Shown piece by piece: positions 3,264 through 54,981 of a stretch of 64,000 nucleotides of DNA. The stretch is from Acidobacteriota bacterium (lineage in GTDB: Bacteria; Acidobacteriota; Polarisedimenticolia; Gp22-AA2), in the NCBI GenBank assembly GCA_003223135.1, contig QHXX01000018.1, forward strand, positions 65,904 to 129,903, given 5' to 3'. The notes beneath the pieces were generated by a model. It was not told where the DNA came from. It ran no database searches and saw only the letters and a list, made by a program, of their open reading frames with translations. Numbering within the stretch: position 1 is the stretch's first letter; each line of letters opens with the position of its first letter. The position numbers and the translations under genes were made by a program.

Positions 3264-3327
3264 GCATCCGGAGAGACTCCGTCCGCCTCGTGCAGAAGGC
3301 CTGGCGCCCCGCCGGGCGATCTCCCGA

Positions 3328-8563: not shown

Positions 8564-8605
8564 ATCTCGCATCGGGACCGAGGCGTGCGGCACCAGGGTC
8601 AAGAT

Positions 8606-8645
8606 AAAGGGGGATAAGGATTTCGCCTTGTCCCCCTTTTTCATT
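8606..8645 (+). terminator. Rho-independent terminator
   Basis: Perfect 9-bp stem aaaggggga / tcccccttt (8606-8614 / 8631-8639) followed by T-rich tract. Confidence 0.55.
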
Positions 8646-8687
8646 TTCCGGCTCGATCTTAAGGCGGCCGGAGTATCGTGAGAGACC

Positions 8688-9248: not shown

Positions 9249-9279
9249 CGGCCGTGGTCGGGCGAGGTTCGGCGCGGTC

Positions 9280-10050: not shown

Positions 10051-10054
10051 ACTC

Positions 10055-10648
10055 CTACAGGAGATCGAGGACGCACAGATGGTCGTAGAAGGCGTCGAAG
10101 TTTTGCTGGCCGGCGTCGGGGAACAGGGTCATCAGCTGTCCGTAGACCTGGTGCAGCTTGCGGCTGCTGCTCTTGAGGTACGTCCCGCGTGAGCGGTAGA
10201 CATCGCGGTTGTCCTTGCCCGCCGCGCCGACGGAGAGCGCCTGGTTCCAGGTCTCGAAGTAGGCGCGCTGGTCGCGGATGGCGTCGACCAGCAGCCGCTG
10301 CACCTCCCGCAGCCGCTCGGGGGCCGGCAGGCCGTCCAGGATCGCGATGAGTGAATCGACGCGGTCGCGGTACTCCTGCACCGACTTCCCCCTGCGCCCC
10401 TCGGACTGGAACCATGTCCAGGCCTGCATTTTCTCGACGATCGCGAGGTCGACGAGCTCGAACAGGCGCGACAGGTAGGCCGCCTCCTCCCGGCTGAAGC
10501 CCCTGGAGGTCGGGTCGAGGGTGGCGTGGCGGTGCTGCATCTCCCGGTAGGCCTCCTCGACGGTCATCGCCTGCACGGGCACGAGGGCCGAGAGGGCCAC
10601 GAAGGCGGCAAGAAGGGGGGCGCGCGCGCGGTCAATCCAGGTCCGCAT
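10055..10648 (-). CDS. Hypothetical secreted protein
   Basis: N-terminal signal peptide (LLAAFVALSALVPVQA), no recognisable domain. Overlaps the stop of the upstream TPR-like gene, suggesting co-transcription. Confidence 0.45.
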   Translation of the reverse strand: MRTWIDRARAPLLAAFVALSALVPVQAMTVEEAYREMQHRHATLDPTSRGFSREEAAYLSRLFELVDLAIVEKMQAWTWFQSEGRRGKSVQEYRDRVDSLIAILDGLPAPERLREVQRLLVDAIRDQRAYFETWNQALSVGAAGKDNRDVYRSRGTYLKSSSRKLHQVYGQLMTLFPDAGQQNFDAFYDHLCVLDLL

Positions 10649-12443: not shown

Positions 12444-12576
12444 CCCTGCGAATCTAGGGCCCGGAGATCCGGCCGCGCAAGGCCGAATTCGGCGCGGGAC
12501 GAGGCTTACAGGAACGTCATCGCGACCCGTGCGGAGGGTTCCGGCGACACGCGGGTCGGACGGAGGACGACCCGGG

Positions 12577-13915
12577 CTAACGCCCCGGCACGCCCGCCGG
12601 CAGCGTCTGACCGATGAAGGCCTCGAGGTTGTCGAGGGCGCGACGGACGAGGAGGGCCTTCTTCTGTCTCTTGTCGCGGGTGTCGCGGTCGAGCGGCGGC
12701 AGGAGCCCAAAGGCGATGTTGGTCGGCTGGTAGTGAGCCGCGTCGGCGCAGGAGATGTACCGCGAAAGAGCCCCGAGGGCCGTCGTCGCCGGGAAGATCA
12801 AGGGTGGCTGGGTTTCCGCCAGGCGCGCCGCGTTGATGCCGGCGATGAGGCCGGAGGCGGCCGACTCGAGATACCCCTCGACACCGGAGATCTGGCCGGC
12901 AAAGAACAGGTCCCGCCGGCGACGGGCCTGGAAGGTCGGCAGGAGGATGGCCGGCGCGTTGATGTACGAGTTGCGGTGCACCTGGCCGAGGCGCGGAAAT
13001 TCCGCGCGCTCGAGGCCGGGGATCATCCGGAACACCCGGATCTGCTCGGCGAACTTGAGATGATTCTGGAAGCCGACCATCGAGTAGAAGTCGGCCGCCA
13101 GGTTGTCCTGCCGGAGTTGCACGACGGCGAACGGCTGTTTGCCTGTGCGAGGGTCGACGAGGCCGACCGGCTTCATCGGGCCGAATGCGAGCGTCTCACG
13201 GCCACGGCGGGCCATCTCCTCGATCGGCAGGCACCCCTCGAAGTAGAAGATCTCCTTCTCGAACTCGTGCGTCGGCGCCTCGGCCGCCCCCAGGAGGGCT
13301 TGGTGGAAGCGGTCGTACTCGGTCTCGGTGAGAGGGCAGTTGAGGTAATCCTCGCCCCCCTTGCCGTAGCGCGATGCCCGGAACACCTTCGACAGGTCGA
13401 TCGTGTCGGCATCCACGATGGGCGAGATCGCGTCGAAGAAGTAGAGGTATTCGCGTCCTGTGAAGCGGGCGATCGCGGACGCTATCGCCTCGCTGGCCAG
13501 GGGGCCAGTGCAAAGGACGCACGGCCCCTCGTCCGGGATCGCCCGGGCCTCTTCGCGCAGGACGCGCACCTGCGGGAGCGACTCAATCGCCTCGGTGACG
13601 CCGCGGGCGAAACGCTCGCGGTCGACCGCCAGAGCCCCGCCGGCGGGCACCCGGCACGCGTCGGCCACACGGATGATGAGCGAGTCGCAACGGCGCATCT
13701 CCTCCTTCAGGAGACCGGACGCCGTGTCAAGGAGGTTCGACTTCAGTGAGTTCGAGCAGACCAGCTCGGCCAGGTCGCCCGTCGCGTGGACCGGGGTCGT
13801 CCGAACCGGCCGCATCTCATGCAGATCGACGCGCAGGCCCCGGCGCGCCGCCTGCCAGGCGGCCTCCGACCCGGCCAAGCCGCCGCCGATGATGATGACG
13901 CGTGTTGTGGCCACG
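12577..13915 (-). CDS. trmFO: Methylenetetrahydrofolate--tRNA-(uracil-5-)-methyltransferase TrmFO
   Basis: FAD-binding TRVIIIGGGLAGSEAAWQAARRG, ELVCSNSLKSN, GQISGVEGYLESAASGLIAGINAA; start GTG (VATTRVIIIGGG). Confidence 0.85.
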
Positions 13916-13956
13916 CGTGACCTTAGCGTAAGCCGGAGCGGGGCGTCAAGGAACGG

Positions 13957-13984
13957 CCCTGTGGAACACCTGTCCCGGCTGTTA
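13957..13984 (+). promoter_or_regulatory. Possible promoter for SDR gene (-10 TAAAAT)
   Basis: TAAAAT at 13979-13984 with GGAACA ~16 nt upstream; AGGAG RBS before ATG 14022. Confidence 0.25.
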
Positions 13985-14021
13985 AAATGTGGCATCGCTC
14001 GGTCGAGCAAAGGAGACGCCC

Positions 14022-14744
14022 ATGGTCAGCACCAGGAGAGTCGCCGTCGTCACCGGGGCCAACCGCGGCATCGGCTTCGAGACCTGCCGGCAGCTGGCGA
14101 AACATGGAATGAAAGTCGTCCTGGCGGCGCGGGACGAAGCCAAGGGACGCGCCGCGGCGGAGCGCCTGCGCGACGAGGATCTGGATGTCGACTTCGCGCC
14201 TCTCGACGTGAGCGACGACGGGAGCGTCCGGGATTTCGCGCGATACATCAAGAAGTCCTTCGGCCGCGTCGACGTCCTGGTGAACAACGCCGGGATCATG
14301 ATCGACGGTAACGAAGAGGTCGGCTCCGGCGCGAGCGGCGTCATGCAGGCGAAGATCGAGACGCTGCGCCGCACGATGGAGGTGAACGTCTATGGGGCGC
14401 TGCGCGTCACCCAGGCGCTCTTGCCGCTCATGCCGAAGGAAGGCGCCCGCATCATCAACGTGTCGTCCGGGATGGGACAGCTCGCAGAGATGAACGGCGG
14501 CTGGCCCGGCTACCGGATCTCCAAGACTTCGCTGAACGCCCTGACGCGCATCTTTGCCGACGAGCTCAAGGAGACGGGAATCAGGGTCAACGCGATCTGT
14601 CCAGGCTGGGTGAAGACCGACATGGGGGGCGCGAAGGCGCCGCGCACGCCGCCGCAGGGCGCGGACACGGTGGTGTGGCTCGCGACCGAGCGCGAGGTTC
14701 CGACCGGAGGCTTTTTCAGGGACCGGAAGCCGATCCCGTGGTAG
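14022..14744 (+). CDS. Short-chain dehydrogenase/reductase (SDR) family oxidoreductase
   Basis: TGANRGIGF Rossmann motif, NNAG, catalytic SSGMG / Y...K context; carbonyl-reductase-like. Confidence 0.8.
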   Translation: MVSTRRVAVVTGANRGIGFETCRQLAKHGMKVVLAARDEAKGRAAAERLRDEDLDVDFAPLDVSDDGSVRDFARYIKKSFGRVDVLVNNAGIMIDGNEEVGSGASGVMQAKIETLRRTMEVNVYGALRVTQALLPLMPKEGARIINVSSGMGQLAEMNGGWPGYRISKTSLNALTRIFADELKETGIRVNAICPGWVKTDMGGAKAPRTPPQGADTVVWLATEREVPTGGFFRDRKPIPW

Positions 14745-14826
14745 TCCGCTGCGATGAACGCGCCGGCATCTTGAATACCGGACTGGCGGCCACTATATAT
14801 TCCGGCACGACGCAGGAGGCATCCGG

Positions 14827-15597
14827 ATGCGGCCCGCCGACCCGGCACCAGAGAACCCGATCGAACGATGGACGGGCGGGATCCGGAACGCGTTTCGCGA
14901 GGCAGGATGTCGGCCGCGCCCCGGCCTTCACGTCGGAGACGCACGGGTGATCCGGCGCCCCGCGGTCATCCTGCTCCTCGCAACGGCGCTTCTCACGGCC
15001 CTGGCTCCGGTCCCGGTGGCCGCCGGCGTCAGGTACGGCGACGCGGTTCCGGGAGTCATCCGTCCGTCCGACCTGGAGAGAATCAAGCGCGTCCTGCGAC
15101 TCGATCGCTTCTCGGTCATTGCGGCCGTCCGGCTGGGGGCGGAGGACGGACGCGAGGCGATTATCACCGAGCCTCTTTCGGACGAGACGCTTACGAAGGT
15201 GAAGGACGCGTGCGAAGCGGGCGGCTTCTGTCCCGACCCGGTCGGCTTCGTGGCCTCGCACGTCCTCATCGTTCTGCTCCGGGATGAAGACGTCGAGACG
15301 GTGGTCATGGTGCAGAGTGAGGCGCGCGGCCCGCGCGGCAGGCTGATCGATCTGCGCGACCTCGGGGTCGAGGGGGAGATCCTCGGCTGGAACGGCCGCG
15401 CCGATGCCGCCGACGGCCACGTTGCGCTCAGCCTGACCCCCATCACCACGACTCCGACCGGCAAGCTCGGCGCCGGGCTCGACCCGCCGCTCCTGATCCG
15501 CTTCAATTCGAAGCGCGATCGATTCCAGGTCTATGACTGCGTCGTGGGGGACGGCGGCGTGGCGATCTGCGAGTTCGAGGACGAGGCAGGAGATTGA
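14827..15597 (+). CDS. Hypothetical secreted protein
   Basis: Internal signal-like segment AVILLLATALLTALAPVPVAAG (possible start ~14940); no recognisable domain. Confidence 0.35.
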   Translation: MRPADPAPENPIERWTGGIRNAFREAGCRPRPGLHVGDARVIRRPAVILLLATALLTALAPVPVAAGVRYGDAVPGVIRPSDLERIKRVLRLDRFSVIAAVRLGAEDGREAIITEPLSDETLTKVKDACEAGGFCPDPVGFVASHVLIVLLRDEDVETVVMVQSEARGPRGRLIDLRDLGVEGEILGWNGRADAADGHVALSLTPITTTPTGKLGAGLDPPLLIRFNSKRDRFQVYDCVVGDGGVAICEFEDEAGD

Positions 15598-19499: not shown

Positions 19500-22388
19500 G
19501 TGACCTCGTCCGTCCTGCCGTCCGCGCGATCGTCGCACCATGCCGGGGCCTTCGTGCTTTGCGCCGCACTGCTCGGGATCGCGACCGTCCTGGGACTGGA
19601 GCGCTCACAGAATCGACCGAGGAGTTCACCGCCTTCGCCTGCCGGAGCGGATTACGATGAGGCCGTCCGACTCTATGTCGCCGGTCACTTCCAGGAGGCG
19701 CTCGAGGCGATCAACCGCGCGTCCGCTGCGGATGGATGGAGCGCTGCGCTGCGCGCGCTCGCCGGCTGGTGTCGTCTTCGGGCCGGCGCTCTGGCTGCGG
19801 CAGAGGCCGAGTTCCGCGCGGCGCTGAAGCTGGACGCGGGCGCCGTCGATCCACACGTGGGGCTGGGATACGTGCTGCTGCGCCGCGGTTCGTCGACGGA
19901 GGCGGAAGACCAGTTTCGTTTCGCCCTGCGCCGCGACGCCTCGAATCTCGACGCGCAGAAGGGGCTCGGTCTCGCGCTGCGTGACCAGAAGAAGTACTCT
20001 GACGCGACGCAGGCGTTTCGCGACGCGCTTCGCCTCAAGCCGGGCGATGCCGAGGCCGAGGGATTGCTGCAACAGGCGCTGGCCGCGGGAGACGGCGGCC
20101 GGGAGGAGCGGCCGCGCGGCCCGGCGACCGGCACGGCGATAAGGGTCGTCGCCCAGGCCAGGGACGGCAGGTTCTTCGTCCGGGAAGGCGGGCGCTTCCG
20201 GCCGCTGTTCGTGAAGGGAGTCAACATGGGGGTGGCGCTGCCGGGCCGCTTCCCCGCGGAATTCCCACCGGACGAGGCGACGTACCGCTCCTTCCTCTCG
20301 GCCATCGCCGGGATGGGCGCCAACGCGGTTCGCCTCTATACCCTTCTGCCCCCTTCGTTCTACGCAGCGCTGCGCCGGCACAACGACGCGGCCCGGTCGG
20401 CACCGCTCTGGCTCCTGCAGGGGATATGGACCGAGCCGCCGGCAGGCGATGACTACGACGGCGACGTGTTCGTCCGGCAATTCCGAGGCGAGATCCGGCG
20501 GGTCATCGACGCGGTGCACGGCAATCTCGACCTCGAGGCGCGGCCGGGTCATGCTTCGGGCATGTACCGGGCCGATATTTCGCCGCATGTCCTCGGTTAC
20601 ATTCTGGGCCGGGAGTGGGAGCCGCTGTCGGTTCGAACCTATGACGGCTGGTTCGCCAAAGGGCACAGAGAATCGTTCGCGGGTGCGTATTTCACGGCGC
20701 GCCTCGAGGATGGCGCCACGCCGTTCGAGCAGTGGCTGGCCCGGACCATGGACTTCGCCGTCGAATACGAGACCGGGGACTACCGCCAGCAGCGCCCGAT
20801 CTCGTTCGTCAACTGGCCCACGCTCGACCCGCTGCGACATCCGACCGAATCGACGGCCCCCGAGGAGGGAGCCTTCCTGCGCGCGATGGGCGAGGAGGAG
20901 ACGGCCGAGATGATCGAGGAGTACGGTGAGTGCGAGGATTGTGTCGGGGTGGACGCAGCGCGCATCGTCCCGACGCCCGACGCGCGGGGCGGTATCTTCG
21001 CGACCTACCACGCTTATCCTTATTACCCCGACTTCATGAATCTCGACCCCGGCTACAGCAGGGCGCGCGACTCGAAGGGTCCGAGCAACTTCATCGGGTA
21101 CCTGCGAGATCTCAAGACCCACCACGGCGCCCAGCCGGTGCTCATCGGCGAGACCGGGGTTCCGAGCAGCCGCGGCATTGCGCATCTCCAGCCTCAGGGG
21201 TGGAACCACGGCGGCCACACCGAGCGCGCGCAGGGGGAGATCGATGCCCGGCTGATGATGGATATCGACGAGGCGGGCCTGGCGGGCGGGGTGTTATTCG
21301 CCCTCCTCGACGAGTGGTTCAAGAGGAACTGGATGGTGTTCGATTTCGAAGTGCCGGCCGAGCGCAAGCCCCTCTGGCTCAATGTCCTCGACCCCGAAGA
21401 GAACTACGGTCTTCTGGCTGCGCGGCCGGGTGCCACGAGTTGGAAGGTGAAAGTCGACGGACGGGCGGAGGACTGGAACGGTGTGGCGCCGTTGGTGACA
21501 CGGCCCGAGGGCGGGCCGGAACGGCCGTTCAAGGACGGCTACGACCGGGCCCGCACGCTGCGAGGACTGGCGGTGACGTCGGACGAAGCCTACCTCTATA
21601 TCCGCCTCGATGTGGACCGGCTCGACGCCGACGGCGACGGCGCCCCCGACTGGGGAAAGGTGGCCTACCTCATCGGCATCGACACCTACGATGCACGGCG
21701 GGGGGATCACAGGTTGCCCATCACCGACAAGGCCGTCTCTCCCGCGGGCCTGGAGTTCTGCCTCGTCCTGGATGGCGCCGCCACGTCGAGACTCCTCGTC
21801 GATACCCCTTACGACCTCCAGACAAAGCGCCATCACCGTCCCTACGGTTCGGTCGAGAACGCCGACGGCCGCTTCATGGAGATCAAGGTCGAGACGAACC
21901 GCAGGCGCGTCGGACGCGACGGCACCGTCTACCCTGCCCAGCAGTCGAGCCGCTCACAGCTCATCCACGGCTCGATGGACCGGCGCGACCGGGACAGTTC
22001 GACGCTGACCGACTGGGCCGCCCGGACCGACTCGAACACCATCGAGATCCGCCTCGGCTGGGGGCTCCTGAACGTCACCGACCCGTCCTCCCGCTCTGTC
22101 CTGAGCGACGATCCGGACAATCTGAAGAACGTCGGCTGCACAAGAACCGCCGGCTTCCGCTTCTACGCCGCGGCGATCAAACCCGAAGGCGCCGCCGGAG
22201 GCCGGACGCCGATCGAGGCCCGGCTCGCCGATCGGCTGCCGCCGGGCGACCTCGCGCAACCGTCCGACCTGCCGATGTACGCCTGGCGCGGCTGGGACGA
22301 GCCGACGTACCACATCGAGAAGAAGGAGGGCTGGAGTATCTTGAAGCGGGCCTTCGAGGCGCTGCCGGCACACCGGGAGGCACCGTGA
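19500..22388 (+). CDS. TPR-repeat protein fused to a TIM-barrel glycoside-hydrolase-like domain (clan GH-A-like); putative EPS hydrolase
   Basis: N-terminal hydrophobic segment + ~4 TPRs. Then FVKGVNMGVALPG (GH5-like beta1), AGMGANAVRLY (like GFNxVR), GREWEP (possible acid/base), VLIGETGVPS (GExG nucleophile-like). Lies immediately upstream of the PgaA-like exporter. Confidence 0.55.
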   Translation: MTSSVLPSARSSHHAGAFVLCAALLGIATVLGLERSQNRPRSSPPSPAGADYDEAVRLYVAGHFQEALEAINRASAADGWSAALRALAGWCRLRAGALAAAEAEFRAALKLDAGAVDPHVGLGYVLLRRGSSTEAEDQFRFALRRDASNLDAQKGLGLALRDQKKYSDATQAFRDALRLKPGDAEAEGLLQQALAAGDGGREERPRGPATGTAIRVVAQARDGRFFVREGGRFRPLFVKGVNMGVALPGRFPAEFPPDEATYRSFLSAIAGMGANAVRLYTLLPPSFYAALRRHNDAARSAPLWLLQGIWTEPPAGDDYDGDVFVRQFRGEIRRVIDAVHGNLDLEARPGHASGMYRADISPHVLGYILGREWEPLSVRTYDGWFAKGHRESFAGAYFTARLEDGATPFEQWLARTMDFAVEYETGDYRQQRPISFVNWPTLDPLRHPTESTAPEEGAFLRAMGEEETAEMIEEYGECEDCVGVDAARIVPTPDARGGIFATYHAYPYYPDFMNLDPGYSRARDSKGPSNFIGYLRDLKTHHGAQPVLIGETGVPSSRGIAHLQPQGWNHGGHTERAQGEIDARLMMDIDEAGLAGGVLFALLDEWFKRNWMVFDFEVPAERKPLWLNVLDPEENYGLLAARPGATSWKVKVDGRAEDWNGVAPLVTRPEGGPERPFKDGYDRARTLRGLAVTSDEAYLYIRLDVDRLDADGDGAPDWGKVAYLIGIDTYDARRGDHRLPITDKAVSPAGLEFCLVLDGAATSRLLVDTPYDLQTKRHHRPYGSVENADGRFMEIKVETNRRRVGRDGTVYPAQQSSRSQLIHGSMDRRDRDSSTLTDWAARTDSNTIEIRLGWGLLNVTDPSSRSVLSDDPDNLKNVGCTRTAGFRFYAAAIKPEGAAGGRTPIEARLADRLPPGDLAQPSDLPMYAWRGWDEPTYHIEKKEGWSILKRAFEALPAHREAP

Positions 22389-24121
22389 GCCGCAGCCGGC
22401 GTCTGGTCGCGATCGTTGCCGTCGGCCTCGCCGTGTTCGCCGCTGCGGTCCTTCCGGCGGGGGCGGCGCCCCCGGCCGCCCGGGAGCGGGACACAACGCA
22501 GACGCCCGCTTCGGGCGCTCCGGTCGGGCGGCCGGTGGCCGACATCGTGAAGGAGGCGGACGCCGCCTTCGCGCGGGAGGACTTCAAGCAGGCGAAGGTC
22601 CTCTACGAGGAGGCGGCTCGCCTCGAGCCCGGCCACGTCCGCGCCCTGCATCGCCTCGCCCTCCTGCAGTCGTGGGACGGAGAACTCCGGGCGTCGGCCG
22701 ACAACTACCGCCGCGCCCTGGCTTTGGCGCCGGACGACTTCGACATAGAGCTCGGTCTCGCCCGGGTGCTGTCGTGGACGCACGAGTTCGGGGAGGCGTG
22801 CGTTCTCTACAGGAAGCTGCGCGAGAAACACCCGGACGACGCGCGCGTCCTCCTCGGTCTCGGAAACACACTGTCGTGGGCGGGCCGCTACGCCGAGGCC
22901 GACGAGGTCTTCAATGACATGGAGGCCCGCAAGATCGAGCCGATCCAGGCGCACGCCGGCCGGGCGCGCCTGCGCGGCTGGCAGGGGAAGCTCGACGAGG
23001 CGGCGCACTTCTGGCGCGACGTGCTGCGCGCGGATCCCGGCAACCTCGAGGCACGCATCGGTCTGGCGTACGTGCACCACTGGCAGGGACTCGATCGCAC
23101 GGCGCGCGAGCAGGCCGACAACATCGTCATCGACCACCCGGAGAGCAAGGAGGCGCGGGAGTTGAAGGAGGCGGTGCGGAAGGGACTGCGGCCGCACGCG
23201 GACGCGGACGCGTTCCGCTACAGCGACACCGACTCCAACCGGGTGGATGGCGGCACGGCGTCGTACACCTTCATGGCCGAGCCGCAGACCTCGATCAGGA
23301 TCGCCTACTCGACCTACGACGCGACGTTCCGCTGCGAGGACGCGCAGTTCTGCGATGAGCCGGGCCTCGCCGTCGGAGATGAGATCGACACGCGCGCGCA
23401 GGTCCTGACCGGTGCTTTGACGTCGCGCGTGATCTCCCCGCTGACCTTCAACGCCCGTCTGGGCGCGGTGCGGGAGGGGACCTTCGGCGGGGACACGCGC
23501 GTCGTCGGGGTCCTCGGCGGCTACCTCCGCTGGCAGGTCGGCCCGAGGTTCGCCCTCGGCACGAACGGCGGCCGGGACGTGTTCCTCGACACCGCCCCCC
23601 TCATCGACCGCGGCATCCGCATCACGGACGCCAATGCCCGCGTGGAGTTCCGTTTCAACCCGGCCTGGCTGCTCTCGGGCAGCGCCGGGGCGGCGTCGTT
23701 TTCCGACGGCAACGCGCGCCGCACGGCCGGGGCTGCGATCGAATGGCGTCTGCCGACGACGCACCCGTGGATCGCGGGCACGGTCGACGTCCGATACCGG
23801 TCGTTCAACGCCGACGAGGACAACGGCTACTTCGACCCGCGGCGCTACGACTCGGAGCTCCTGACCCTGGCGGTCTGGGACGACTACCGTGACGGCCTGC
23901 TCTACTGGAGGCTCGAGGGCACGTATGGACGGCAAGCCTTCACCGTCGGCGCGGTGAAACGCGACGACGCGGTGAGCGGCGGGTCCGTCCTCGCGGGCGT
24001 CAACTTCGCGCAGGGCAGGGCAGCTCTCGAGGCTTCGTACGCCCGCAGCGACTACGCGCTCAATGTCGCGCAGGGATTCACGTACAGCCGGACAGGGTTT
24101 TCCCTGCGGTTCCGGTTCTGA
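22385..24121 (+). CDS. PgaA/BcsC/PelB-like outer-membrane exporter: N-terminal TPR domain + C-terminal beta-barrel
   Basis: GTG start overlaps upstream stop (GTGA). Signal peptide LVAIVAVGLAVFAAAVLPAGA, TPRs, C-terminal alternating hydrophobic beta-strands ending ...FSLRFRF (terminal Phe). Confidence 0.55.
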   Translation: MSRSRRLVAIVAVGLAVFAAAVLPAGAAPPAARERDTTQTPASGAPVGRPVADIVKEADAAFAREDFKQAKVLYEEAARLEPGHVRALHRLALLQSWDGELRASADNYRRALALAPDDFDIELGLARVLSWTHEFGEACVLYRKLREKHPDDARVLLGLGNTLSWAGRYAEADEVFNDMEARKIEPIQAHAGRARLRGWQGKLDEAAHFWRDVLRADPGNLEARIGLAYVHHWQGLDRTAREQADNIVIDHPESKEARELKEAVRKGLRPHADADAFRYSDTDSNRVDGGTASYTFMAEPQTSIRIAYSTYDATFRCEDAQFCDEPGLAVGDEIDTRAQVLTGALTSRVISPLTFNARLGAVREGTFGGDTRVVGVLGGYLRWQVGPRFALGTNGGRDVFLDTAPLIDRGIRITDANARVEFRFNPAWLLSGSAGAASFSDGNARRTAGAAIEWRLPTTHPWIAGTVDVRYRSFNADEDNGYFDPRRYDSELLTLAVWDDYRDGLLYWRLEGTYGRQAFTVGAVKRDDAVSGGSVLAGVNFAQGRAALEASYARSDYALNVAQGFTYSRTGFSLRFRF

Positions 24122-24155
24122 GGCGCGGTTCTTTGCTCGCGCCGCGCAGCGAGGG

Positions 24156-24545
24156 GTGACGGCCGTGGCGGAGCAGGCCCGAATCCTGATCGCGGACGGC
24201 GACGCGCCCGTGCGACGCTTCGTGGCCGCGCTTCTCGTCCACGGAGGATACGAGGTGCATGAGGCCGCGGACGGCGAGTCGGCGCTTCAAAAGGCGGTGT
24301 CGCTCGCGCCGCGACTGCTGGTCCTGGACATCGTGCTGCCGGGGAAGGACGGTTTCGAGGTCATCAACTCGCTCAAGTCGAACCCGGCGACCTCCCGCCT
24401 GCCGATTCTGGTGCTGTCGGTGAAGGATCGCGAGGAGGATGTGGTGAAGGCGCTCGACCTCGGCGCCGAGGACTACGTCATCAAGCCGTTCAGCCCCCGC
24501 GAGCTCCAGGCGCGCATCCGCAAGATTCTCGAAAGGAGCCGGTGA
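24156..24545 (+). CDS. Stand-alone response-regulator receiver (REC, CheY-like) protein
   Basis: ILIADGD, phospho-acceptor context LLVLDIVLPGKDGFEV, LPILVLSVKD, AEDYVIKPF; no output domain. The ORF track starts at 24063, which overlaps the upstream gene. Confidence 0.75.
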   Translation: MTAVAEQARILIADGDAPVRRFVAALLVHGGYEVHEAADGESALQKAVSLAPRLLVLDIVLPGKDGFEVINSLKSNPATSRLPILVLSVKDREEDVVKALDLGAEDYVIKPFSPRELQARIRKILERSR

Positions 24546-24549
24546 CGCC

Positions 24550-25824
24550 GTGGATCCGGTGCGCCTTCTGATGGTCGAGGTGGTCGAGGGAGTCGGGGTC
24601 TTCCTCGCCCTTCTCACCTTTGCGATCGTCATCAACAAGGCGCTCCGCGAGGTGGGCGAGGCCCTCGACAGACACCGGCGCACGCTCATCGAGCCGGCCG
24701 TCTTCGAGTACCTCGGCGCCGCGTCCTCCAGGCCGCAGCGCGACGCCCTCCCGCGATCGTCGTCGCGCCGCGACCGGCGCCTGGTGGAGGAGTTCCTTCT
24801 CGAGGCGGCGCGCGTCGTGAAGGGGGAAACGCGCGACCGGGTGACCGCCGCCTTCGAGGCGCTCGGCTCGGTGCGCGAGGCGATCCGCGCTCTGCACAGC
24901 CGCCGCTGGTGGAAGCGCGCCGAGGCAGCCGAGAGGCTCGGGCTGATGCGAAGCCGCACGGCCGTCGCGCCGCTCGTGGCCCTGATGAGCGATCCGGAGG
25001 CGGAGGTGCGCATCCGCGCGGCCCGCGCCCTGGGTCTCGTTCGCGGAAGCACGTCGATCAGACCGCTCGTATCGGCCCTCGCGGACCCGAGCCGCTGGTC
25101 GGCGATCCGCGTCGCCGAGATTCTGATCAACGTCGGCGTCGAGGCGGTGGACGAGCTCCTCGTGGCCTATGAGACGTTGCCGCTTAACGCCCGAGTCTCC
25201 GCCCTCGACGTTCTGGGGCGCATCCGGAGTCTCAGGGCTGTCGGGCTGATGAAACAGTGTCTTTCGGACGCACACCCGGACATCCGGGCTCGCGCGGCGC
25301 ACGGGCTCGGCCTCATCGGCGATCCTGGCACCGCCCCCGACCTGATTCGCGCCCTCCGGGACACGGAGTGGCCGCCGCGCGCGATGGCGGCCAAATCGCT
25401 CGGCCGCCTCCGAGACCCTGCAGCCATAGGACCGCTGCGCGAGTCGATGAGGGACCGGCAGTGGTGGGTGCGTTACAACTCCGGCGAGGCGCTCCGGGCC
25501 CTCGGCCCCGAAGGTCTGGAGGCGCTGATCGACATGTTGAGCTCCGACGATCCGTACGCCCGTCACATGGCGGTGGCGCAGCTCGAAGAAGGCCGGGTCA
25601 TCGACCACTTTGTCGCGGACCTGACCTCGAACGACGCCGGCAAGCGCGCCGCGGCGATCCGCTTCGTCGACAAAGTAACCGCCGCCGCCCGCATCGACGA
25701 TACGACCCGGCAGGCGGCCAGAAGCGCCCAGGAAGGCGTGCGCCACGCGCTGTCCAACATCCTGAAAACGCCGTCGCCGGCACCTGCGTCCTCACCCGGC
25801 AAGGGGGACGGAGGACGTTCGTGA
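24550..25824 (+). CDS. Membrane-anchored HEAT/PBS-lyase-like repeat protein
   Basis: One N-terminal TM helix (GVGVFLALLTFAIVI), then >=6 HEAT-like repeats (EVRIRAARALGLV, WSAIRVAEILINVG, PDIRARAAHGLGLIGDP, WPPRAMAAKSLGRLRDP, WWVRYNSGEALRALG). Confidence 0.55.
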   Translation: MDPVRLLMVEVVEGVGVFLALLTFAIVINKALREVGEALDRHRRTLIEPAVFEYLGAASSRPQRDALPRSSSRRDRRLVEEFLLEAARVVKGETRDRVTAAFEALGSVREAIRALHSRRWWKRAEAAERLGLMRSRTAVAPLVALMSDPEAEVRIRAARALGLVRGSTSIRPLVSALADPSRWSAIRVAEILINVGVEAVDELLVAYETLPLNARVSALDVLGRIRSLRAVGLMKQCLSDAHPDIRARAAHGLGLIGDPGTAPDLIRALRDTEWPPRAMAAKSLGRLRDPAAIGPLRESMRDRQWWVRYNSGEALRALGPEGLEALIDMLSSDDPYARHMAVAQLEEGRVIDHFVADLTSNDAGKRAAAIRFVDKVTAAARIDDTTRQAARSAQEGVRHALSNILKTPSPAPASSPGKGDGGRS

Positions 25825-25852
25825 CCGGTCGCCGAGCCGCCGGTGGGCCACC

Positions 25853-27295
25853 ATGACCTGGATGTCCGTCCTGATCACAATCGTCCTCGCCTTCAACCGC
25901 TGGGTGATCTTCTACTTCGGCCTCCTGAACGGCGTCTATCTCTTGCTGTTCCTGGTGTCGTTCGTGGAGGTCCTGCGCTTCGTCAAGCGGACGTTCTTCT
26001 CCGACTACGAGCAAATCTTGAAGTCGGAGATGACCTGGCCCATCTCAATGATCGTCCCCGCCTACAACGAAGCGCGCAACATCGTCGAGACCGTGCGGTC
26101 GCTTCTCGCGGTGAACTATGGTCAGTTCGAGGTCGTCGTGGTGAACGATGGGTCCAACGACGGCACGCTCGAGCGCCTCATTTCGACCTTCGAGCTGAAG
26201 CGCACCGACCGCATCTACCGCCGCACGCTGCCGACCGGTCCCGTGCGCGGCATCTACGCCTCGCTCGAACATCCGAATCTCAGCGTCGTGGACAAGGAGT
26301 GGGGCGGCAAGGCCGAGGCGCTCAACTGCGGGATCAATGTGTCGCGCTACCCCCTGTTCTGCTCGGTCGATGCCGATTCGATCATGGAGGACAATGCGCT
26401 CCTGCGAGTGGTGAAGCCGTTCATGGAGCACCCCCAGGAGATGGTCGCCGCCGGCGGTATCGTTCGCATCGTCAATGGCTGCGAGGTGCGCGAAGGCCGG
26501 GTCGTGCGCATCGGCCTGCCGAAGAAGCCCTTGCCTGTCTTCCAGGTCGTCGAATATCTGAGAGCGTTCCTGGGAGGGCGCATCGGATGGAGCAGCCTGC
26601 GGTCGCTGCTCATCATCTCTGGCGCGTTCGGTCTGTACCGCAAGTCGGTGGTGATCGCCGCCGGAGGCTACGACAGCTGGTCGGAAACCGAGGACCTCGA
26701 GCTCGTCCTGAAGCTCCACGAGCACATGCGCAGGACCGGCCGCAAGTACCGCATCGTCTTCGTCCCCGACCCCGTATGCTGGACCGAGGTCCCGTCGACC
26801 TTTCGTGTCCTGGCTCGCCAGCGCAACCGCTGGCACCGCGGCCTGCTCCAGAGCCTGTGGCGCCACAAGCACATGATCTTCAACCCCGAGTACGGCGCCA
26901 TCGGCATGCTCGGGCTGCCCTACTTTCTTGTCTTCGAGTCCCTCGGCCCCTTCATTGAAATTCTCGGCTACATCACGGTCGCGCTCTCGTATTGGCTCGG
27001 CGTCCTGAACATCGATTTCTTCGTTCTCTTCCTAATCTTCGCCGTCTTCTTCGGGGTCTTCCTGTCCGTCGCCGCCGTGCTCCTGGAGGAGGTCTCCTTC
27101 CGCCGCTATCCCGGCTGGGAACACCTCGCCAGGCTCGTCTTCTACGGTGTCCTCGAAAACTTCGGCTACCGCCAGATCCTGGCCATCTTCAAGGTGAAAG
27201 CCTTCTGGGACTTTCTGCGGCGCCGTCGCGCCTGGGGCCGGATGGAGCGCGAGGGGTTCCGGGCGGGACCGGCGTCGCCGACCCTTCGGACCTAG
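25853..27295 (+). CDS. Processive family-2 glycosyltransferase, PgaC/IcaA/HmsR-like EPS synthase
   Basis: 2 N-terminal TMs, GT-A domain (VVNDGSNDGT; DAD in SVDADS), processive motif QRNRWHRG (QxxRW), C-terminal TM cluster; ~480 aa, no PilZ domain. Confidence 0.75.
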   Translation: MTWMSVLITIVLAFNRWVIFYFGLLNGVYLLLFLVSFVEVLRFVKRTFFSDYEQILKSEMTWPISMIVPAYNEARNIVETVRSLLAVNYGQFEVVVVNDGSNDGTLERLISTFELKRTDRIYRRTLPTGPVRGIYASLEHPNLSVVDKEWGGKAEALNCGINVSRYPLFCSVDADSIMEDNALLRVVKPFMEHPQEMVAAGGIVRIVNGCEVREGRVVRIGLPKKPLPVFQVVEYLRAFLGGRIGWSSLRSLLIISGAFGLYRKSVVIAAGGYDSWSETEDLELVLKLHEHMRRTGRKYRIVFVPDPVCWTEVPSTFRVLARQRNRWHRGLLQSLWRHKHMIFNPEYGAIGMLGLPYFLVFESLGPFIEILGYITVALSYWLGVLNIDFFVLFLIFAVFFGVFLSVAAVLLEEVSFRRYPGWEHLARLVFYGVLENFGYRQILAIFKVKAFWDFLRRRRAWGRMEREGFRAGPASPTLRT

Positions 27296-31080: not shown

Positions 31081-31627
31081 CTCGTCCTATCCCTCGAGGC
31101 GGGGTCAACGGCCAGAGAGTGGCGAGGATCATATCGCCACCGGGAGGCACGGTCAAGAAAAGCCTTCCGGGACGGGTCAAAGTCCGGCCAGCCGGGCCGC
31201 ATCCGACTGCACAGACTCGCAACATGCCTCGGGCAATTCCGAACGACGGGTGGACACGTCTAGTAAAGCTATTGTTCTCATACACATAGTATATGCCATG
31301 AGCTCCCACTGACGAAAACCTGGGCAGTTGGTGTGCGAGAGCTGGTCACTCCGACGGGGGACTCGCAGAGCATCAGGCCGCACCGGACAAGATTGATCTG
31401 CCCTGATCATCCATCGCAATAATCAGGAAATGAGCTAGTTAGGAAATCATGAGCAGGCTTGTACAGGGGTGCCGGACGGGATGGCACCACCCTTGCTCTT
31501 ATTGAAGCGACCAGTCGTGAAGGCCAAACCACTCGCGAGGGTGGGACGGAAAGCCAACGGGTCTCTTGAAGACGGCCGGGTTGCCAGCTGGGCGGCTCAA
31601 ACCGCCCGCTGTCGGTCAGGAGGCGCC

Positions 31628-33631
31628 ATGTCGAGAGGGGCCCGATCAGACCGCAGCCAGGGAAATCGCCACGGGTTCTGGGGCCGCTTCGTCCGCGCCG
31701 CCACCAACGCCCTCGTCGCAGTCCTTTTTATCACGCTGTCATTCCCTTCCGCGTTCGCCGAGAAAGGGAAGAAGGCGGGAGTCGCCTCGGATCTGCGGGA
31801 AGAATTCCGGAGTGGGTCACCGTCCGACAGGGTCCGCCTGGTGGTGACCCTGAACGGCGCCGATCCAGTTTATGTCGCCAACAGGGTTTATGAACTGGGC
31901 GGCAAGGCTGGACGCCATCTCAAGAACGTCGACGAGATGGCTCTTGAGCTGCCGCTCGGGTCTGTGCCTGACTTGGCGGAAATCGAGGGACTCGAGTATA
32001 TCGCTCCTGATCGTCAAGTCACGGGTCTTGCGAGCCATATCGAGGTTACGACCGGTGCCAGTCAGGTCTATCCGGTGTCGGGCGGCACCCTCAGCACCCT
32101 TCTGTCACTGACCGGCCTCGACGGGTCGGGCGTCGCGGTAGCGATCCTGGACTCGGGAATCGACGCCGACCATTTCGACCTGAAGGACGACAAGGGCAGG
32201 CGCCATGTCGTCCTCTCGTCGGATTTCACGGGCCGCGGAGGCCTGGATGACCCGTACGGCCACGGAACCAACGTCGCCGGGCTCATCGCCGGCGACGGCA
32301 GCTCGGCGTCCACGATCGGGCGTGACTACACCGGTATCGCGCCGGGCGCGAACCTCATCAACTTCAAAGTCCTCGACGAGAATGGGCGGGGCTACGTCAG
32401 TAGCGTCGTAGCGGCCATCGACCAGGCGATCTCCCTCCGCTATTATTACAACATTAAGGTCATCAACCTCTCGCTCGCGGCCCCGCCGGTCGACTCGTAC
32501 GTCAACGATCCCATGTGCAAGGCTGTCGAGCGGGCGACCCGGGCCGGGATCGTGGTCGTGGCGGCGGCCGGAAACTTCGGCCAGGACTCGAACGGCAAGA
32601 AGGTCTATGGCGGCATCACCTCCCCCGGCATCTCGCCGTCGGCGATCACCGTCGGCGCGACGAACACACGTGGCACCGACGTCCGATCGGATGACACGGT
32701 GGCGCCCTACTCCTCCCGCGGCCCGACGCTGGCACACACGACCGACCCGGTGACCGGCCAGGTCACCTACGACAATCTGGTGAAGCCGGACCTGGTGGCG
32801 CCCGGAACCCGTCTTGTGTCGCTTGAGCGGTACGGCAATCTCCTGGTGAGCTACTACCCGGTCCTGCACGTCGACACCGGCAACAACGTCAACAACAAGA
32901 GCCGGTACATGATGTTGACCGGCACATCGATGGCGAGCGGCGTGGTCTCCGGCGCCGTGGCGCTCATGATGCAGGCGAACCCGGGCCTGACCCCCAACCA
33001 GGTGAAGGCGATCCTGATGTACTCCGCCCAGATCATGGACGGCGAGGGTCTGTTCGAGCAGGGCGCCGGAATGCTGAACATCGAGGGCGCAGTGCGACTG
33101 GCGAAGGCGGCCAACCGCTTCGCCTATGCCCTGCCCGCCGGCGCGAATTTGATGTCCCTTGGAGCGCTGCCGGCGCCGGCGCAGACGACCGTCGCAGGCG
33201 AGACCTTCGCCTGGAGCCAAGGCCTCATCTGGGGCATCGGCATGCTGCGCGGTGAAGCGATTCTCACGACGCAGCAGCTCGCCTACGCACAGTCGCTGAT
33301 CTGGGGCATCGGCAGGCTCGATTCGTGGGGCGTGGGCGTCACTTACTACGACGGCCTGTTCTCCGACTCCTACGTCGTGTTCGGCAAGGGCAACCAGTGG
33401 AACTATGTCTCCTGGACCGCCGGTACGCCGCAGTCGAGCGGCCTCATCTGGTCCGATCGCCTCTACGGCTCCGGTCTCATCTGGGCGAACCAGCTGATTT
33501 CGAACGATTTCTTCGACGTCTCGTCCACCAGCCTGATCTGGGGCATCCGCGGCTACGGCGGCTCTGACTTGAGCCTCATCTGGGGCCTGCAGGACGCCGG
33601 GCTCATCTGGGGGATCGCCAATGCCTGGTGA
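31628..33631 (+). CDS. Secreted subtilisin-like serine protease (peptidase S8) with C-terminal [GS]LIW-repeat region
   Basis: Signal peptide. Catalytic Asp (AILDSGIDADHFD), His (HGTNVAGLIAG), Asn (AAAGNFG), Ser (GTSMASGVVSGAVALM). C-terminal ~150 aa contain 7 copies of [GS]LIW(G). Confidence 0.8.
   Translation: MSRGARSDRSQGNRHGFWGRFVRAATNALVAVLFITLSFPSAFAEKGKKAGVASDLREEFRSGSPSDRVRLVVTLNGADPVYVANRVYELGGKAGRHLKNVDEMALELPLGSVPDLAEIEGLEYIAPDRQVTGLASHIEVTTGASQVYPVSGGTLSTLLSLTGLDGSGVAVAILDSGIDADHFDLKDDKGRRHVVLSSDFTGRGGLDDPYGHGTNVAGLIAGDGSSASTIGRDYTGIAPGANLINFKVLDENGRGYVSSVVAAIDQAISLRYYYNIKVINLSLAAPPVDSYVNDPMCKAVERATRAGIVVVAAAGNFGQDSNGKKVYGGITSPGISPSAITVGATNTRGTDVRSDDTVAPYSSRGPTLAHTTDPVTGQVTYDNLVKPDLVAPGTRLVSLERYGNLLVSYYPVLHVDTGNNVNNKSRYMMLTGTSMASGVVSGAVALMMQANPGLTPNQVKAILMYSAQIMDGEGLFEQGAGMLNIEGAVRLAKAANRFAYALPAGANLMSLGALPAPAQTTVAGETFAWSQGLIWGIGMLRGEAILTTQQLAYAQSLIWGIGRLDSWGVGVTYYDGLFSDSYVVFGKGNQWNYVSWTAGTPQSSGLIWSDRLYGSGLIWANQLISNDFFDVSSTSLIWGIRGYGGSDLSLIWGLQDAGLIWGIANAW
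33222..33618 (+). repeat. In-frame short coding repeat (ctcatctgggg-type, x7) encoding [GS]LIW motifs
   Basis: ggcctcatctggggcatcgg, tcgctgatctggggcatcgg, ggcctcatctggtcc, ggtctcatctgggcg, agcctgatctggggcatc, agcctcatctggggcctg, gggctcatctgggggatc. Confidence 0.7.
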
Positions 33632-34458: not shown

Positions 34459-34873
34459 GGTGGGGTGCGGCAGAGACCGCGCTCCATCGCGCGTGATGAA
34501 CTAGTCGCGTCGGAGTCGATGCGCGGAAATCGCACACGCGGGGCTCAGAGTGATGCGACCTGGACACGTCCGCAGCCGGACATCATCACTGGATCCAACA
34601 GTTGAAGAACCGTCGTCGGCCCGATGCCTGGATGTGTGTGAGGTTTGTACAGCGCGCCTCCAAATCTATTGACGGTGATCATCTTGAGCCGTCGCCACCT
34701 TTCTGGCGCCGAGGTCTAACCCTCGCTGTTCCTTCACTTGCAGGCGCCCCCCGGACGTGGTGGTGATCGGATTGGACGTGGCACGGCCGTTGCGAATAAA
34801 GGCGACAACGGCGGCGCTCTGTCCGGCTCGGCCGACAGTCACCCATCAGGGGAGCAAGAGTTTCAAGGAGACC

Positions 34874-37012
34874 ATGCGGATCAGCGGACCGGGAGGAAGG
34901 CTCTATCTCATGGCCGTCGCGGCGGCCGGCGCGGCCCTGCTGGGCACCGCGGCCGCGGCCCTGTCGCTCCTCCTGATCGGCCAGATCGGCCTCGTCTCCT
35001 GCGTGGTCGTTCCACCCATCCTGCTGCTCGCGGTCTTGGTCTACCGCTCGTACAAGAGCCAGGCTTCGGAAAACCTGAAGCGTCTGGATGACCTGATGCA
35101 GGTGCACCTGTCGACCATCGAGGCTCTGGCGCTCGCCATCGACGCCAAGGACCCGCACGCGCAGGGACACACGCGCCGGGTGCAGGCGTACGCACTCGAG
35201 CTGGCGCGGCGGCTGCGGGTCCCGCGTCAGGACTACGAAGCGGTGAGCGCGGGGGCGCTGCTGCACGACATCGGCAAGCTGGCGATCCCGGACCACCTGC
35301 TCAACAAGCCCGGCAAGCTCTCGGACATGGAGTACCAGAAAGTCAAGGCCCACCCGTCCGTGGCCGCCGACATCCTGGCGAACGTGCACTTCCCGTATCC
35401 GGTGCTGCCCGCGGTGCGACACCACCACGAGCGCTGGGACGGGTCGGGCTACCCCGACGGCCTGCGCGGAGAGGAGATCCCGCTCGCGGCCCGCATCCTC
35501 ACCGTGGCCGACTCGCTCGAGGCGCTGACCTCCGACCGGGCGTGGCGGGGACGGAAGTCACCCGAGGAGGCCTGCTCCCTCATCGAAGCGTGGTCGGGAA
35601 TCCAATTCGATCCGGCGGTGGTGACGGTGCTGCGGAAAAGCCTTTCCGAGGTGATCGGCGCGGTCAGCGCCGTTCCGGAGCCGCGCAGGAGCGATGCGGC
35701 GGACGCACGGGCGCGCCTCGAGGAGGCCCTGGCGCGTATCGATTCGACCGGAATCTGGAACGGCCCGCCCGCTTCGGACGAGGAGGATCCGGGCGGGTTT
35801 GGCGACAGTCTGCACCTCGGCATCGGCGCGGAGCGGGCGCCCGCTCCCCAGCAGGCTGGCGGCGTGCCGGGCGTCGCGTCCGCGTCGGAGACGGGGACGA
35901 GCGTCTGGCTGGAGCGGGACGCCAGCGGCGCCATCGTCGGGCGCCAGACTTCCGTCCTGGGCTCCATCTCCTCGGCGCATCGCGAGGTCTACGCGCTGTA
36001 CGAGATCGCGCAGACGCTCGGGTCATCGCTACGCCTGTCGGAGGTGCTGGATCTGGTCGCAGCGAAGATCGGCCAGCTCGTTCCTTACCGCACCTGCGTC
36101 ATTTACCTCCTGGAGGACGACCACGAGGCGCTGTCGGCGCGGTTCGCGTCCGGCGCCAACGTCGAGCACCTGCGCGGACGATCGCTGCAGGTGGGCGAGG
36201 GGATCACCGGGTGGGCGGCAAGCCAGAAGAGCAACCGTTTCTCCAGCAGCCCCGACCTCGACCTGTCGGGCACCGAAGTCGACCCCTCGGAGTACTCGAC
36301 GGTGGCGGCTTTCCCGCTCATCCAGGACGGCAAGGCGCTCGGAGTGATCACCCTCTATTTCCCGAAGGGTGTCCCGTGCCTGGACGATTACATCCGCATG
36401 ATGGACATCATCGCCAAGCTCGCGGCCGCGGCGGTCTTCAACGGCACGATGTTCGCGGAGACGCAGGAGTCGGCGCTGACGGACGTCCTGACCAACCTGC
36501 CGAACTCGCGTTACCTGCGACAGGCGTTCGAGCAGGAGAAGGTGCGCAGCCAGCAGGCCGGCCAGCCGATGGCGTTCCTGGAGGCCGACCTGGACGACTT
36601 CAAAACGATCAACGATCGATACGGCCACAATATCGGCGACCGCTACCTGTCCGAGATCAGCCGCGTCCTCAAGAGCCACCTGCGCGAGCGTGACATCCTC
36701 GTGCGTCTGTCGGGCGACGAGTTCGCCGCCCTTTTGCCGATGACCGGCTTCGCCCAGGCGGCCCTCCTGGCCGAGCGCCTGCAGCAGGCGGTCGACCTGT
36801 TCACGCTGCGCCTGGAGGAGGGAAAGGTGGCACGTTCGGGGCTGTCGATCGGCATCGCCCTCTATCCGGTGGACGGCGAGGGGTTCGAGGACCTCCTGGT
36901 GCGCGCCGACCACAACATGTATCAGAACAAGGCCGCCCGCAAGAACGCCCGCCTCGAGCGCGCCCCCAACATCCTTCCGTTCCCGATCAAGAGCCCGGGT
37001 AAGATCGGCTAG
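34874..37012 (+). CDS. Membrane-anchored HD-GYP - GAF - GGDEF(SGDEF) c-di-GMP signalling protein
   Basis: 2 N-terminal TMs. HD-GYP (HDIGKLAIPDHLLNKPGKL...HHERWDGSGYPDGL), GAF (EGITGWAASQ...LGVITLYFPK), GGDEF domain with degenerate A-site RLSGDEFAALLP and intact I-site RERD. Confidence 0.8.
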   Translation: MRISGPGGRLYLMAVAAAGAALLGTAAAALSLLLIGQIGLVSCVVVPPILLLAVLVYRSYKSQASENLKRLDDLMQVHLSTIEALALAIDAKDPHAQGHTRRVQAYALELARRLRVPRQDYEAVSAGALLHDIGKLAIPDHLLNKPGKLSDMEYQKVKAHPSVAADILANVHFPYPVLPAVRHHHERWDGSGYPDGLRGEEIPLAARILTVADSLEALTSDRAWRGRKSPEEACSLIEAWSGIQFDPAVVTVLRKSLSEVIGAVSAVPEPRRSDAADARARLEEALARIDSTGIWNGPPASDEEDPGGFGDSLHLGIGAERAPAPQQAGGVPGVASASETGTSVWLERDASGAIVGRQTSVLGSISSAHREVYALYEIAQTLGSSLRLSEVLDLVAAKIGQLVPYRTCVIYLLEDDHEALSARFASGANVEHLRGRSLQVGEGITGWAASQKSNRFSSSPDLDLSGTEVDPSEYSTVAAFPLIQDGKALGVITLYFPKGVPCLDDYIRMMDIIAKLAAAAVFNGTMFAETQESALTDVLTNLPNSRYLRQAFEQEKVRSQQAGQPMAFLEADLDDFKTINDRYGHNIGDRYLSEISRVLKSHLRERDILVRLSGDEFAALLPMTGFAQAALLAERLQQAVDLFTLRLEEGKVARSGLSIGIALYPVDGEGFEDLLVRADHNMYQNKAARKNARLERAPNILPFPIKSPGKIG

Positions 37013-54970: not shown

Positions 54971-54981
54971 GCGTGTCTCCT

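Follow-up and report, generated by a model that had tools for sequence, protein, structure and literature searches.

A conserved receiver–HEAT–glycosyltransferase gene unit points to an undescribed accessory and regulatory module for an extracellular polysaccharide

Introduction

The synthase-dependent systems that produce cellulose, alginate, Pel and Gram-negative poly-N-acetylglucosamine (PNAG) are switched on post-translationally by receptors of cyclic diguanylate (c-di-GMP). Here we describe a locus in which the synthase gene is preceded by genes of another kind. It lies in a 64,000-nucleotide stretch of DNA from an Acidobacteriota bacterium (assembly GCA_003223135.1, contig QHXX01000018.1, forward-strand positions 65,904 to 129,903), referred to below as the window and numbered from its first letter. 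Three adjacent genes encode a stand-alone receiver (REC), a single-pass membrane protein made of HEAT repeats (the HEAT protein) and a processive family-2 glycosyltransferase (GT2). Its conservation in little-studied phyla is taken as a sign of an accessory and regulatory unit, so far undescribed, that serves the making of an extracellular sugar polymer.

The closest described systems differ in how the signal reaches the enzyme. In Myxococcus xanthus the orphan single-domain regulator EpsW, once phosphorylated, binds and activates post-translationally EpsZ, the enzyme that initiates synthesis of the exopolysaccharide (EPS), and it has been proposed to promote EpsZ dimerisation (PMC12802240). 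The PgaC-PgaD complex is stabilised by c-di-GMP (PMC7112194), and PelDEFG constitutes an inner-membrane complex of Pseudomonas aeruginosa (PMC12345266 and references therein). By analogy, the general idea of a post-translational regulator acting on a polysaccharide enzyme already has a precedent in the EpsW-EpsZ pair. Our literature searches turned up no account of this operon, nor of any polysaccharide synthase with a HEAT protein as its partner.

Conservation of the gene order

In the window, REC (24156..24545, 129 residues), the HEAT protein (24550..25824, 424 residues) and GT2 (25853..27295, 480 residues) follow one another on the plus strand. The GT2 protein matches Glycos_transf_2, Glyco_tranf_2_3 and Chitin_synth_2, and the motifs DGS, DAD, TED and QRNRW are read in its translation between N- and C-terminal hydrophobic, presumably membrane, segments; the D, DxD, TED and QxxRW signature of a processive membrane enzyme is thus complete. 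The preservation of this order was followed by scanning one genome per species with the HEAT alignment. Relatives appeared in 177 genomes, and 80 loci were kept, from Acidobacteriota (subdivision 22/Polarisedimenticolia, including the cultured Mor1), Gemmatimonadales, Myxococcota and Gammaproteobacteria; open reading frames (ORFs) were called in them and matched to five proteins of the window, namely these three and the products of the two genes upstream.

GT2 comes directly after HEAT in all 75 loci whose sequence continues for 600 nt or more downstream, in four phyla, and the two frames overlap by 4 nt at 55 of 78 junctions and by 1 nt at four others. A stand-alone REC of about 127 residues stands directly upstream of HEAT in 69 of the 80 loci: 44 of 47 in Acidobacteriota, 20 of 20 in Gemmatimonadales, none of four in Myxococcota and none in the single testable gammaproteobacterial locus. 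Here the overlap is of 4 nt in 22 loci and of 1 nt in 15, that is, in 37 of the 69. When the search was seeded from the other end, with GT2 matches of 66-70% identity, the three contexts obtained all had REC-HEAT upstream. Protein lengths are kept across loci (about 127, 412 and 480 residues for REC, HEAT and GT2), the top 120 GT2 homologues all having about 480. Mean identity to the window proteins within Acidobacteriota is 70% for GT2, 49% for HEAT and 51% for REC; by this measure GT2 evolves more slowly than its two neighbours.

The genes around the three are less constant. A porin built of tetratricopeptide repeats (TPR) and a barrel is adjacent upstream in 32 of 41 Acidobacteriota loci versus none of 12 in Gemmatimonadales, where the three genes are found by themselves among unrelated housekeeping genes, flanked by a Big_1-domain gene and dnaX. 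In Mor1, in Myxococcota and in several unassigned metagenome-assembled genomes (MAGs) a TPR-YaiO barrel is found 3′ of GT2 instead, and in one Acidobacteriota MAG (locus L090) such a gene lies downstream on the opposite strand. The first gene of the window operon is present in some loci and absent from others. The conserved unit is REC-HEAT-GT2, with HEAT-GT2 as its invariable core, and the exporter genes move around it.

A preliminary description of this stretch had seen the receiver and the HEAT protein as inserted between exporter and synthase genes. This is true of the window arrangement only, since the porin may be upstream, downstream or elsewhere in other loci. Co-conservation, which had been put forward as a check, is borne out for the synthase by the counts given above, whereas for the exporter it holds only in part. 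Translational coupling, also suggested there, is plausible in view of the 4- and 1-nt overlaps that dominate among the orthologues, although the window itself shows gaps: its HEAT gene starts with a GTG placed 4 nt past the REC stop, with AAAGGAG 13 nt upstream of that start, and the ATG of GT2, at 25853, lies 28 nt past the HEAT stop.

In a profile search of 1.84 billion representatives for HEAT-GT2 or REC-HEAT fusions, giant HEAT proteins crowded out other matches, and three long candidates with N-terminal matches (P0358, P0364 and P0370) turned out to be HEAT-only. Two loci of the survey carry unexpected labels, Dongiaceae for L016 (DATKFL010000358.1) and Patescibacteria for L020 (DASROJ010000055.1). 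These MAG bins are probably contaminated or mis-assigned, because both contain an Acidobacteriota-type operon with the same gene order and a HEAT identity of 45-55%. Other observations concern the surroundings of individual loci. L090 has REC-HEAT-GT2 only, apart from the opposite-strand genes at 8484-13143 (minus strand), which comprise an 844-residue membrane enzyme of the sulfatase family (PF00884), an unknown gene and the TPR-YaiO barrel; they may represent a polymer-modifying enzyme and an alternative exporter. Two S8 peptidases are encoded on the minus strand downstream of the Mor1 operon (L056, 14047-15951 and 16365-18179), and in L011 the gene for a REC-REC-GGDEF-EAL protein (12894-15245, plus strand) follows GT2 on its strand at a distance of about 210 nt.

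The HEAT-repeat protein

The HEAT protein is recognised in Pfam by generic repeat models alone, HEAT_2 (3.5e-32), HEAT_PBS (3.9e-17) and HEAT, and no NCBIfam family reaches its cut-off, the NblB and CpcE equivalogs scoring 52 and 47 bits where 300-330 are required. An AlphaFold2 model built from 55 homologues, with a mean predicted local distance difference test score (pLDDT) of 89, begins with one continuous helix (residues 3-56) followed by short helices. Eight helix pairs in a 30-31-residue register then occupy residues 117-359 (24898-25626), with a degenerate pair capping each side. The preliminary description had announced at least six repeats and one transmembrane helix in a protein that starts 4 nt after the receiver gene; eight repeats are in register in the model, and the start site and a single hydrophobic N-terminal 19-mer agree with the rest.

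The transmembrane helix extends over approximately residues 11-29 (24580-24636) and a basic juxtamembrane stalk comes next. A single hydrophobic N-terminal 19-mer is present in each of 81 orthologues (median Kyte-Doolittle value 2.64), and charges are distributed very unevenly around it, with a mean of 0.3 Lys plus Arg before the segment versus 6.7 in the 20 residues after it. An N-out/C-in topology with a cytoplasmic solenoid is predicted for all 81, and therefore REC, solenoid and glycosyltransferase domain would share the cytoplasm.

The relatives of the HEAT protein found by sequence in the PDB are alphaRep and PBS HEAT proteins, and a fold search made with the model returned generic solenoids alone. 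Taken together, the sequence and fold matches comprise alphaRep designs, MTH187, CpcE, deoxyhypusine hydroxylase, importin-α and the PP2A A subunit; as modelled, the solenoid has a fold common to protein-binding scaffolds in general. The invariant Asp, Arg and Trp were considered as a binding site and rejected, being located in the 'D..W.VR' of the PBS-HEAT repeat consensus. What is specific to the family is the N-terminal part of about 115 residues, composed of the transmembrane helix, the basic stalk 'NKA.RE...DRRRR..LEP' and three short helices. In the protein collection, 186 close homologues of about 410 residues were found, mostly from Acidobacteriota 'Polarisedimenticolia'. A previously unannotated family of HEAT-repeat proteins with a clear functional neighbour is defined.

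The receiver

REC matches PF00072 with an E-value of 2.8e-25 and 89 bits (cut-off 30) over residues 10-122 of its 129, and Pfam finds no other domain in the protein, in agreement with the earlier view of a receiver devoid of output domain. Translation is taken to start at the GTG at 24156; an alternative GTG at 24165, preceded by a better-placed GAGGGG, would give 126 residues. Among NCBIfam models REC matches best the receiver halves of regulators of the PhoB/OmpR type; of the PhoB equivalog model, too, only the receiver part is matched. Aligned with the PhoB sequence, REC is 40% identical, without gaps, to residues 4-122, and its C-terminus coincides with the end of PhoB helix α5. Judged by these matches, REC is an OmpR/PhoB-type receiver minus the DNA-binding domain. 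With no DNA-binding or output domain, it cannot control transcription by itself.

The residues of the phosphorylation site were compared with those of CheY. The window REC keeps the equivalents of D57, T87 (as Ser), K109 and P110, so that the phospho-acceptor Asp, the Thr/Ser and the Lys are all present. Of the acidic Mg2+-binding pair, D12 is kept and D13 is Gly, the sequence reading A-D-G-D; the Asp found at position 14 might compensate for it. Among 69 receivers of the operon, D57 is kept in 67, Ser occupies the T87 position in 69, K109 is kept in 67 and P110 in 69, position 106 is Tyr or Phe, and D13 is Asp in 60. As a family, the receiver looks phosphorylatable.

No HisKA or HATPase_c domain was detected in the 64 kb of the window by motif scans or by phmmer with two histidine-kinase cores, which confirms what had been noted before. 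The receiver is an orphan everywhere, a conclusion that the preliminary description had reached for the window. In L080, a locus without stand-alone REC, a PAS-PAS-HisKA-HATPase-REC hybrid kinase (674-3889, plus strand) is encoded immediately upstream of the first operon gene (operon at 3914); this may be a coincidence or an alternative way of supplying a signal. The sole other receiver domain in the window belongs to a PleD/WspR-like REC-GGDEF protein with a GGEEF motif (52747-53718, minus strand), whose gene is immediately downstream of ftsZ (53720-55339, minus strand).

A model for control of the synthase

We propose that the HEAT protein serves the synthase as a dedicated and obligatory cytoplasmic partner, and that REC is an optional, phosphorylation-dependent post-translational switch on the HEAT-GT2 complex, a proposal to which we assign a probability of roughly 0.45. 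In the model, HEAT would be an inner-membrane partner of GT2, placed beside the synthase by its single transmembrane helix, and its cytoplasmic α-solenoid would offer a protein-binding platform on or next to the GT2 catalytic domain, a role comparable to that of PgaD, IcaD or PelE in other systems. A kinase encoded elsewhere would phosphorylate the stand-alone REC. Phosphorylated REC would then bind the HEAT-GT2 complex and switch polymerisation on or off post-translationally, taking the place of the c-di-GMP receptor of other synthase-dependent systems. HEAT is read as a co-subunit at the cytoplasmic face of the synthase because of the strict linkage, the overlapping frames, the matching topology and the scaffold fold. 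The contacts between the proteins, the sign of the effect and the phosphorylation are all inferred, and likewise the docking site of the receiver, which would be on HEAT if gene position is the guide, or on GT2 if the EpsW precedent is. In a bolder version, which we consider rather doubtful, phosphorylated REC and HEAT would together act on a processive GT2 as an allosteric switch, driven by phosphorylation and independent of c-di-GMP. If true, it would show for the first time a synthase-dependent polysaccharide machine gated directly by two-component phosphotransfer, and GT2 would be the first bacterial synthase to have an α-solenoid as co-subunit.

Several observations weigh against the model. 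REC is missing from 11 of the 80 loci while HEAT and GT2 stay conserved, and is therefore dispensable for whatever these two proteins do. Three of the loci (L014, L017 and L080) are nested among REC-containing Acidobacteriota. Over the best aligned segment their HEAT proteins are 46-61% identical to that of the window (in L080 the match covers query residues 102-376 only), values that equal or exceed those of many receiver-containing loci, and which suggest that the loss of REC was secondary. In addition, no convincing set of REC-specific positions emerges when REC-containing and REC-lacking loci are compared. Positions conserved in at least 90% of the REC-containing loci number 91 in HEAT and 210 in GT2, of which 73 and 181, respectively, are also at least 75% conserved in the loci lacking REC. 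Only G223 of HEAT and F389 of GT2 passed the strict filter, and the looser list consists mostly of conservative and phylogeny-linked substitutions; these results do not support an interface. The main constraint on HEAT is therefore independent of the receiver, as would be expected if HEAT were primarily a partner of GT2 and the receiver regulatory and dispensable. The HEAT repeats themselves are generic, and their conserved Trp, Arg and Asp belong to the consensus and mark no specific site. A kinase-like ORF occurs within 10 kb in just 3 of 82 loci, and never at a conserved position. Finally, in the sub-clade of the window phosphorylation may be weakened or abandoned: the D13 position is Gly or Ser in the window and in L004-L007 and L010, D57 is replaced by Glu in L010 and L016, and K109 by Arg in L004 and L016, substitutions that suggest a relaxed phospho-site and a drift towards a phosphorylation-independent receiver. 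The preliminary description had envisaged binding of the phosphorylated receiver to the HEAT solenoid, an idea now weakened because REC is missing from those 11 loci, no REC-specific positions are seen and D13 of the window receiver is Gly.

These observations can be accommodated in other ways. HEAT could be a structural or assembly co-subunit with a separate role, such as localisation or the recruitment of precursor enzymes, while phosphorylated REC binds the GT2 catalytic domain directly and promotes, for instance, dimerisation of the synthase. The constancy of HEAT-GT2 without REC and the lack of a REC-specific signature in HEAT would be natural under such an arrangement, for which direct enzyme binding by EpsW is a precedent; moreover, REC keeps the PhoB-like α4-β5-α5 segment, which mediates dimerisation in the PhoB-like receiver family. 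However, the REC gene always adjoins HEAT, often overlapping it, and never adjoins GT2, and GT2 is also without a clear REC-specific signature; we hold this arrangement to be unlikely. Rather less probable is that the REC of the window sub-clade is a phosphorylation-independent pseudo-receiver serving as a constitutive small subunit and not as a switch. The substitutions at D13, D57 and K109 and the absence of a nearby kinase in 79 of 82 loci would agree with it, but the window REC retains D57, S87, K109 and P110, its Asp at 14 could substitute for D13, and family-wide the site is conserved almost completely.

Stand-alone receivers often act as phosphate sinks or connectors, and REC, being dispensable in 11 of 80 loci, might be such a component of a two-component or chemosensory pathway, expressed together with the polysaccharide genes and without action on the synthase. 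This we judge improbable, slightly more so than a pseudo-receiver, given that the tight and often overlapping linkage of REC to HEAT-GT2 persists in two phyla whose neighbourhoods are otherwise different, a persistence that would be difficult to understand if REC had no part in the machine. A fortuitous adjacency, or genes wrongly called, would have in its favour the generic nature of the REC and HEAT domains and nothing else; it is already refuted by the comparative data, namely the adjacency in 75 of 75 and 69 of 80 loci across phyla, the conserved gene lengths and the strong matches and confident models.

The operon and its polymer

Five closely spaced genes of the plus strand span 19500-27295 of the window. 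They are preceded, on the opposite strand, by homologues of dprA and topA, and GT2 is followed by a convergent gene of the minus strand, so that the five genes are delimited as a unit, inside which no terminator-like sites of the plus strand were found. They probably form one operon for a synthase-dependent, probably β-linked, extracellular polysaccharide.

Upstream of REC are two genes, the second of which has a GTG start that overlaps the stop codon of the first (GTGA, as read from the sequence). Gene 2 (22385..24121, plus strand, 578 residues) encodes TPRs followed by a PgaA-like β-barrel of an outer-membrane porin; the window therefore contains a TPR-type β-barrel exporter. Besides many TPR matches, its product gives 79 bits (1.9e-22) with the PgaA equivalog TIGR03939, below the cut-off of 367, and 23.5 bits (3.5e-05) with PgaA_barrel (PF21197), below the cut-off of 27. 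By these scores, it resembles PgaA at the domain level only. The synthase behaves similarly, reaching 125 bits with the PgaC_IcaA equivalog TIGR03937 (cut-off 422), and a PDB sequence search with it gave generic N-terminal GT2 matches alone. Neither a carbohydrate esterase family 4 (CE4) deacetylase nor PgaD was matched in the five operon proteins. Because of these two absences and of equivalog scores that are all below cut-off, the polymer is not demonstrably PNAG.

Gene 1 (19500..22388, plus strand, 962 residues) has N-terminal TPRs as its only Pfam matches and ends in a domain of about 750 residues (20127-22385) without Pfam match, for which even a profile search found no sequence relatives in the PDB. 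The domain has 3291 homologues. Its AlphaFold2 model (pLDDT 88, predicted template-modelling score 0.90) consists of a (β/α)8 barrel and a C-terminal β-sandwich, and the top Foldseek match is a glycoside hydrolase (GH) of family GH157, an endo-β-1,3-glucanase (3.5e-11), followed by GH35, GH2, GH5 and GH1, all of them clan GH-A β-glycosidases in CAZy. The Glu in 'REWEP' and the Glu in 'GETG' are invariant and would resemble the acid/base and nucleophile motifs of clan GH-A. The domain is thus predicted to be a clan GH-A-like glycanase, and is a candidate for a glycoside hydrolase family that is new and associated with the present polysaccharide operon type. The model suggests a periplasmic glycanase similar to BcsZ or PgaB, and an inverting GT2 combined with a clan GH-A-like domain suggests a β-linked polymer.

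The c-di-GMP-receptor domains PilZ, GGDEF, GAF and MshEN were absent from the operon proteins in Pfam and NCBIfam searches, and PilZ matches obtained in the window by regular expression were set aside as lying outside the operon, in improbable frames. Elsewhere in the window a 751-residue protein (34757-37012, plus strand) combines an HD-GYP-type HD_5 domain with GAF and GGDEF; c-di-GMP signalling therefore exists in this genome. Also on the plus strand, a 720-residue ORF (31469-33631) has subtilase-like motifs (DSGID, HGT and GTSMA) and about nine C-terminal 'LIWG' repeats.

Comparison with known systems

If the proposed model is true, receiver and HEAT protein together would constitute a different way to control a synthase-dependent machine. 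Through it, matrix production in bacteria abundant in soil and sediment would be connected with two-component or chemosensory signalling. The proposal is testable, since the unit is carried by a cultured organism, Acidobacteria bacterium Mor1, whose REC-HEAT-GT2 and porin genes lie in region 3257861-3279102 of CP011806.1.

With respect to its HEAT component, the locus is related to the PBS-lyase HEAT-like proteins CpcE/CpcF, NblB, MTH187 and alphaRep, with which it has in common the 31-residue repeat type (PF03130/PF13646); indeed, its best PDB matches are alphaRep designs derived from that family. Those proteins are soluble, whereas in the HEAT protein of the window a basic stalk follows a conserved transmembrane helix, and its neighbour is always GT2. 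The operon as a whole recalls pgaABCD and icaADBC in its TPR and β-barrel porin, its periplasmic glycanase-type enzyme, its membrane GT2 and a non-catalytic membrane partner adjoining the synthase. It differs from them in lacking CE4 deacetylase and PgaD, in that the partner is a HEAT solenoid of 424 residues, and in that the input would be a receiver and not c-di-GMP.

The resemblance to EpsW-EpsZ, as an analogy, is that in both cases a polysaccharide pathway is linked with a stand-alone receiver that is an orphan, the kinase gene being located elsewhere, and that regulation would be exerted at the enzyme and not at transcription. Like regulators of the EpsW type, REC is a single receiver, here of 129 residues with PF00072 only, and is encoded in an EPS-linked operon. 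However, EpsW acts on a phosphoglycosyl transferase of the large monotopic kind that belongs to a Wzx/Wzy pathway, whereas the window locus has no such transferase and a processive GT2 instead, and here a HEAT membrane protein is interposed between receiver and enzyme. In the Pel system, a membrane-anchored α-helical repeat protein regarded as a protein interaction module, PelE, is paired with the signal receptor PelD and controls a glycosyltransferase. The likeness is one of analogy only. The repeats of PelE are not of the HEAT type, the ligand of PelD is c-di-GMP, and the roles of glycosyltransferase and translocase fall to the soluble PelF and to PelG, respectively. Lastly, the PilZ domains of BcsA and Alg44 occupy the logical position that is proposed here for REC and HEAT, that of a cytoplasmic signal-receiving module on a processive GT2 synthase; the operon proteins of the window contain no PilZ, GGDEF I-site or MshEN, and in their case the signal would be phosphorylation.

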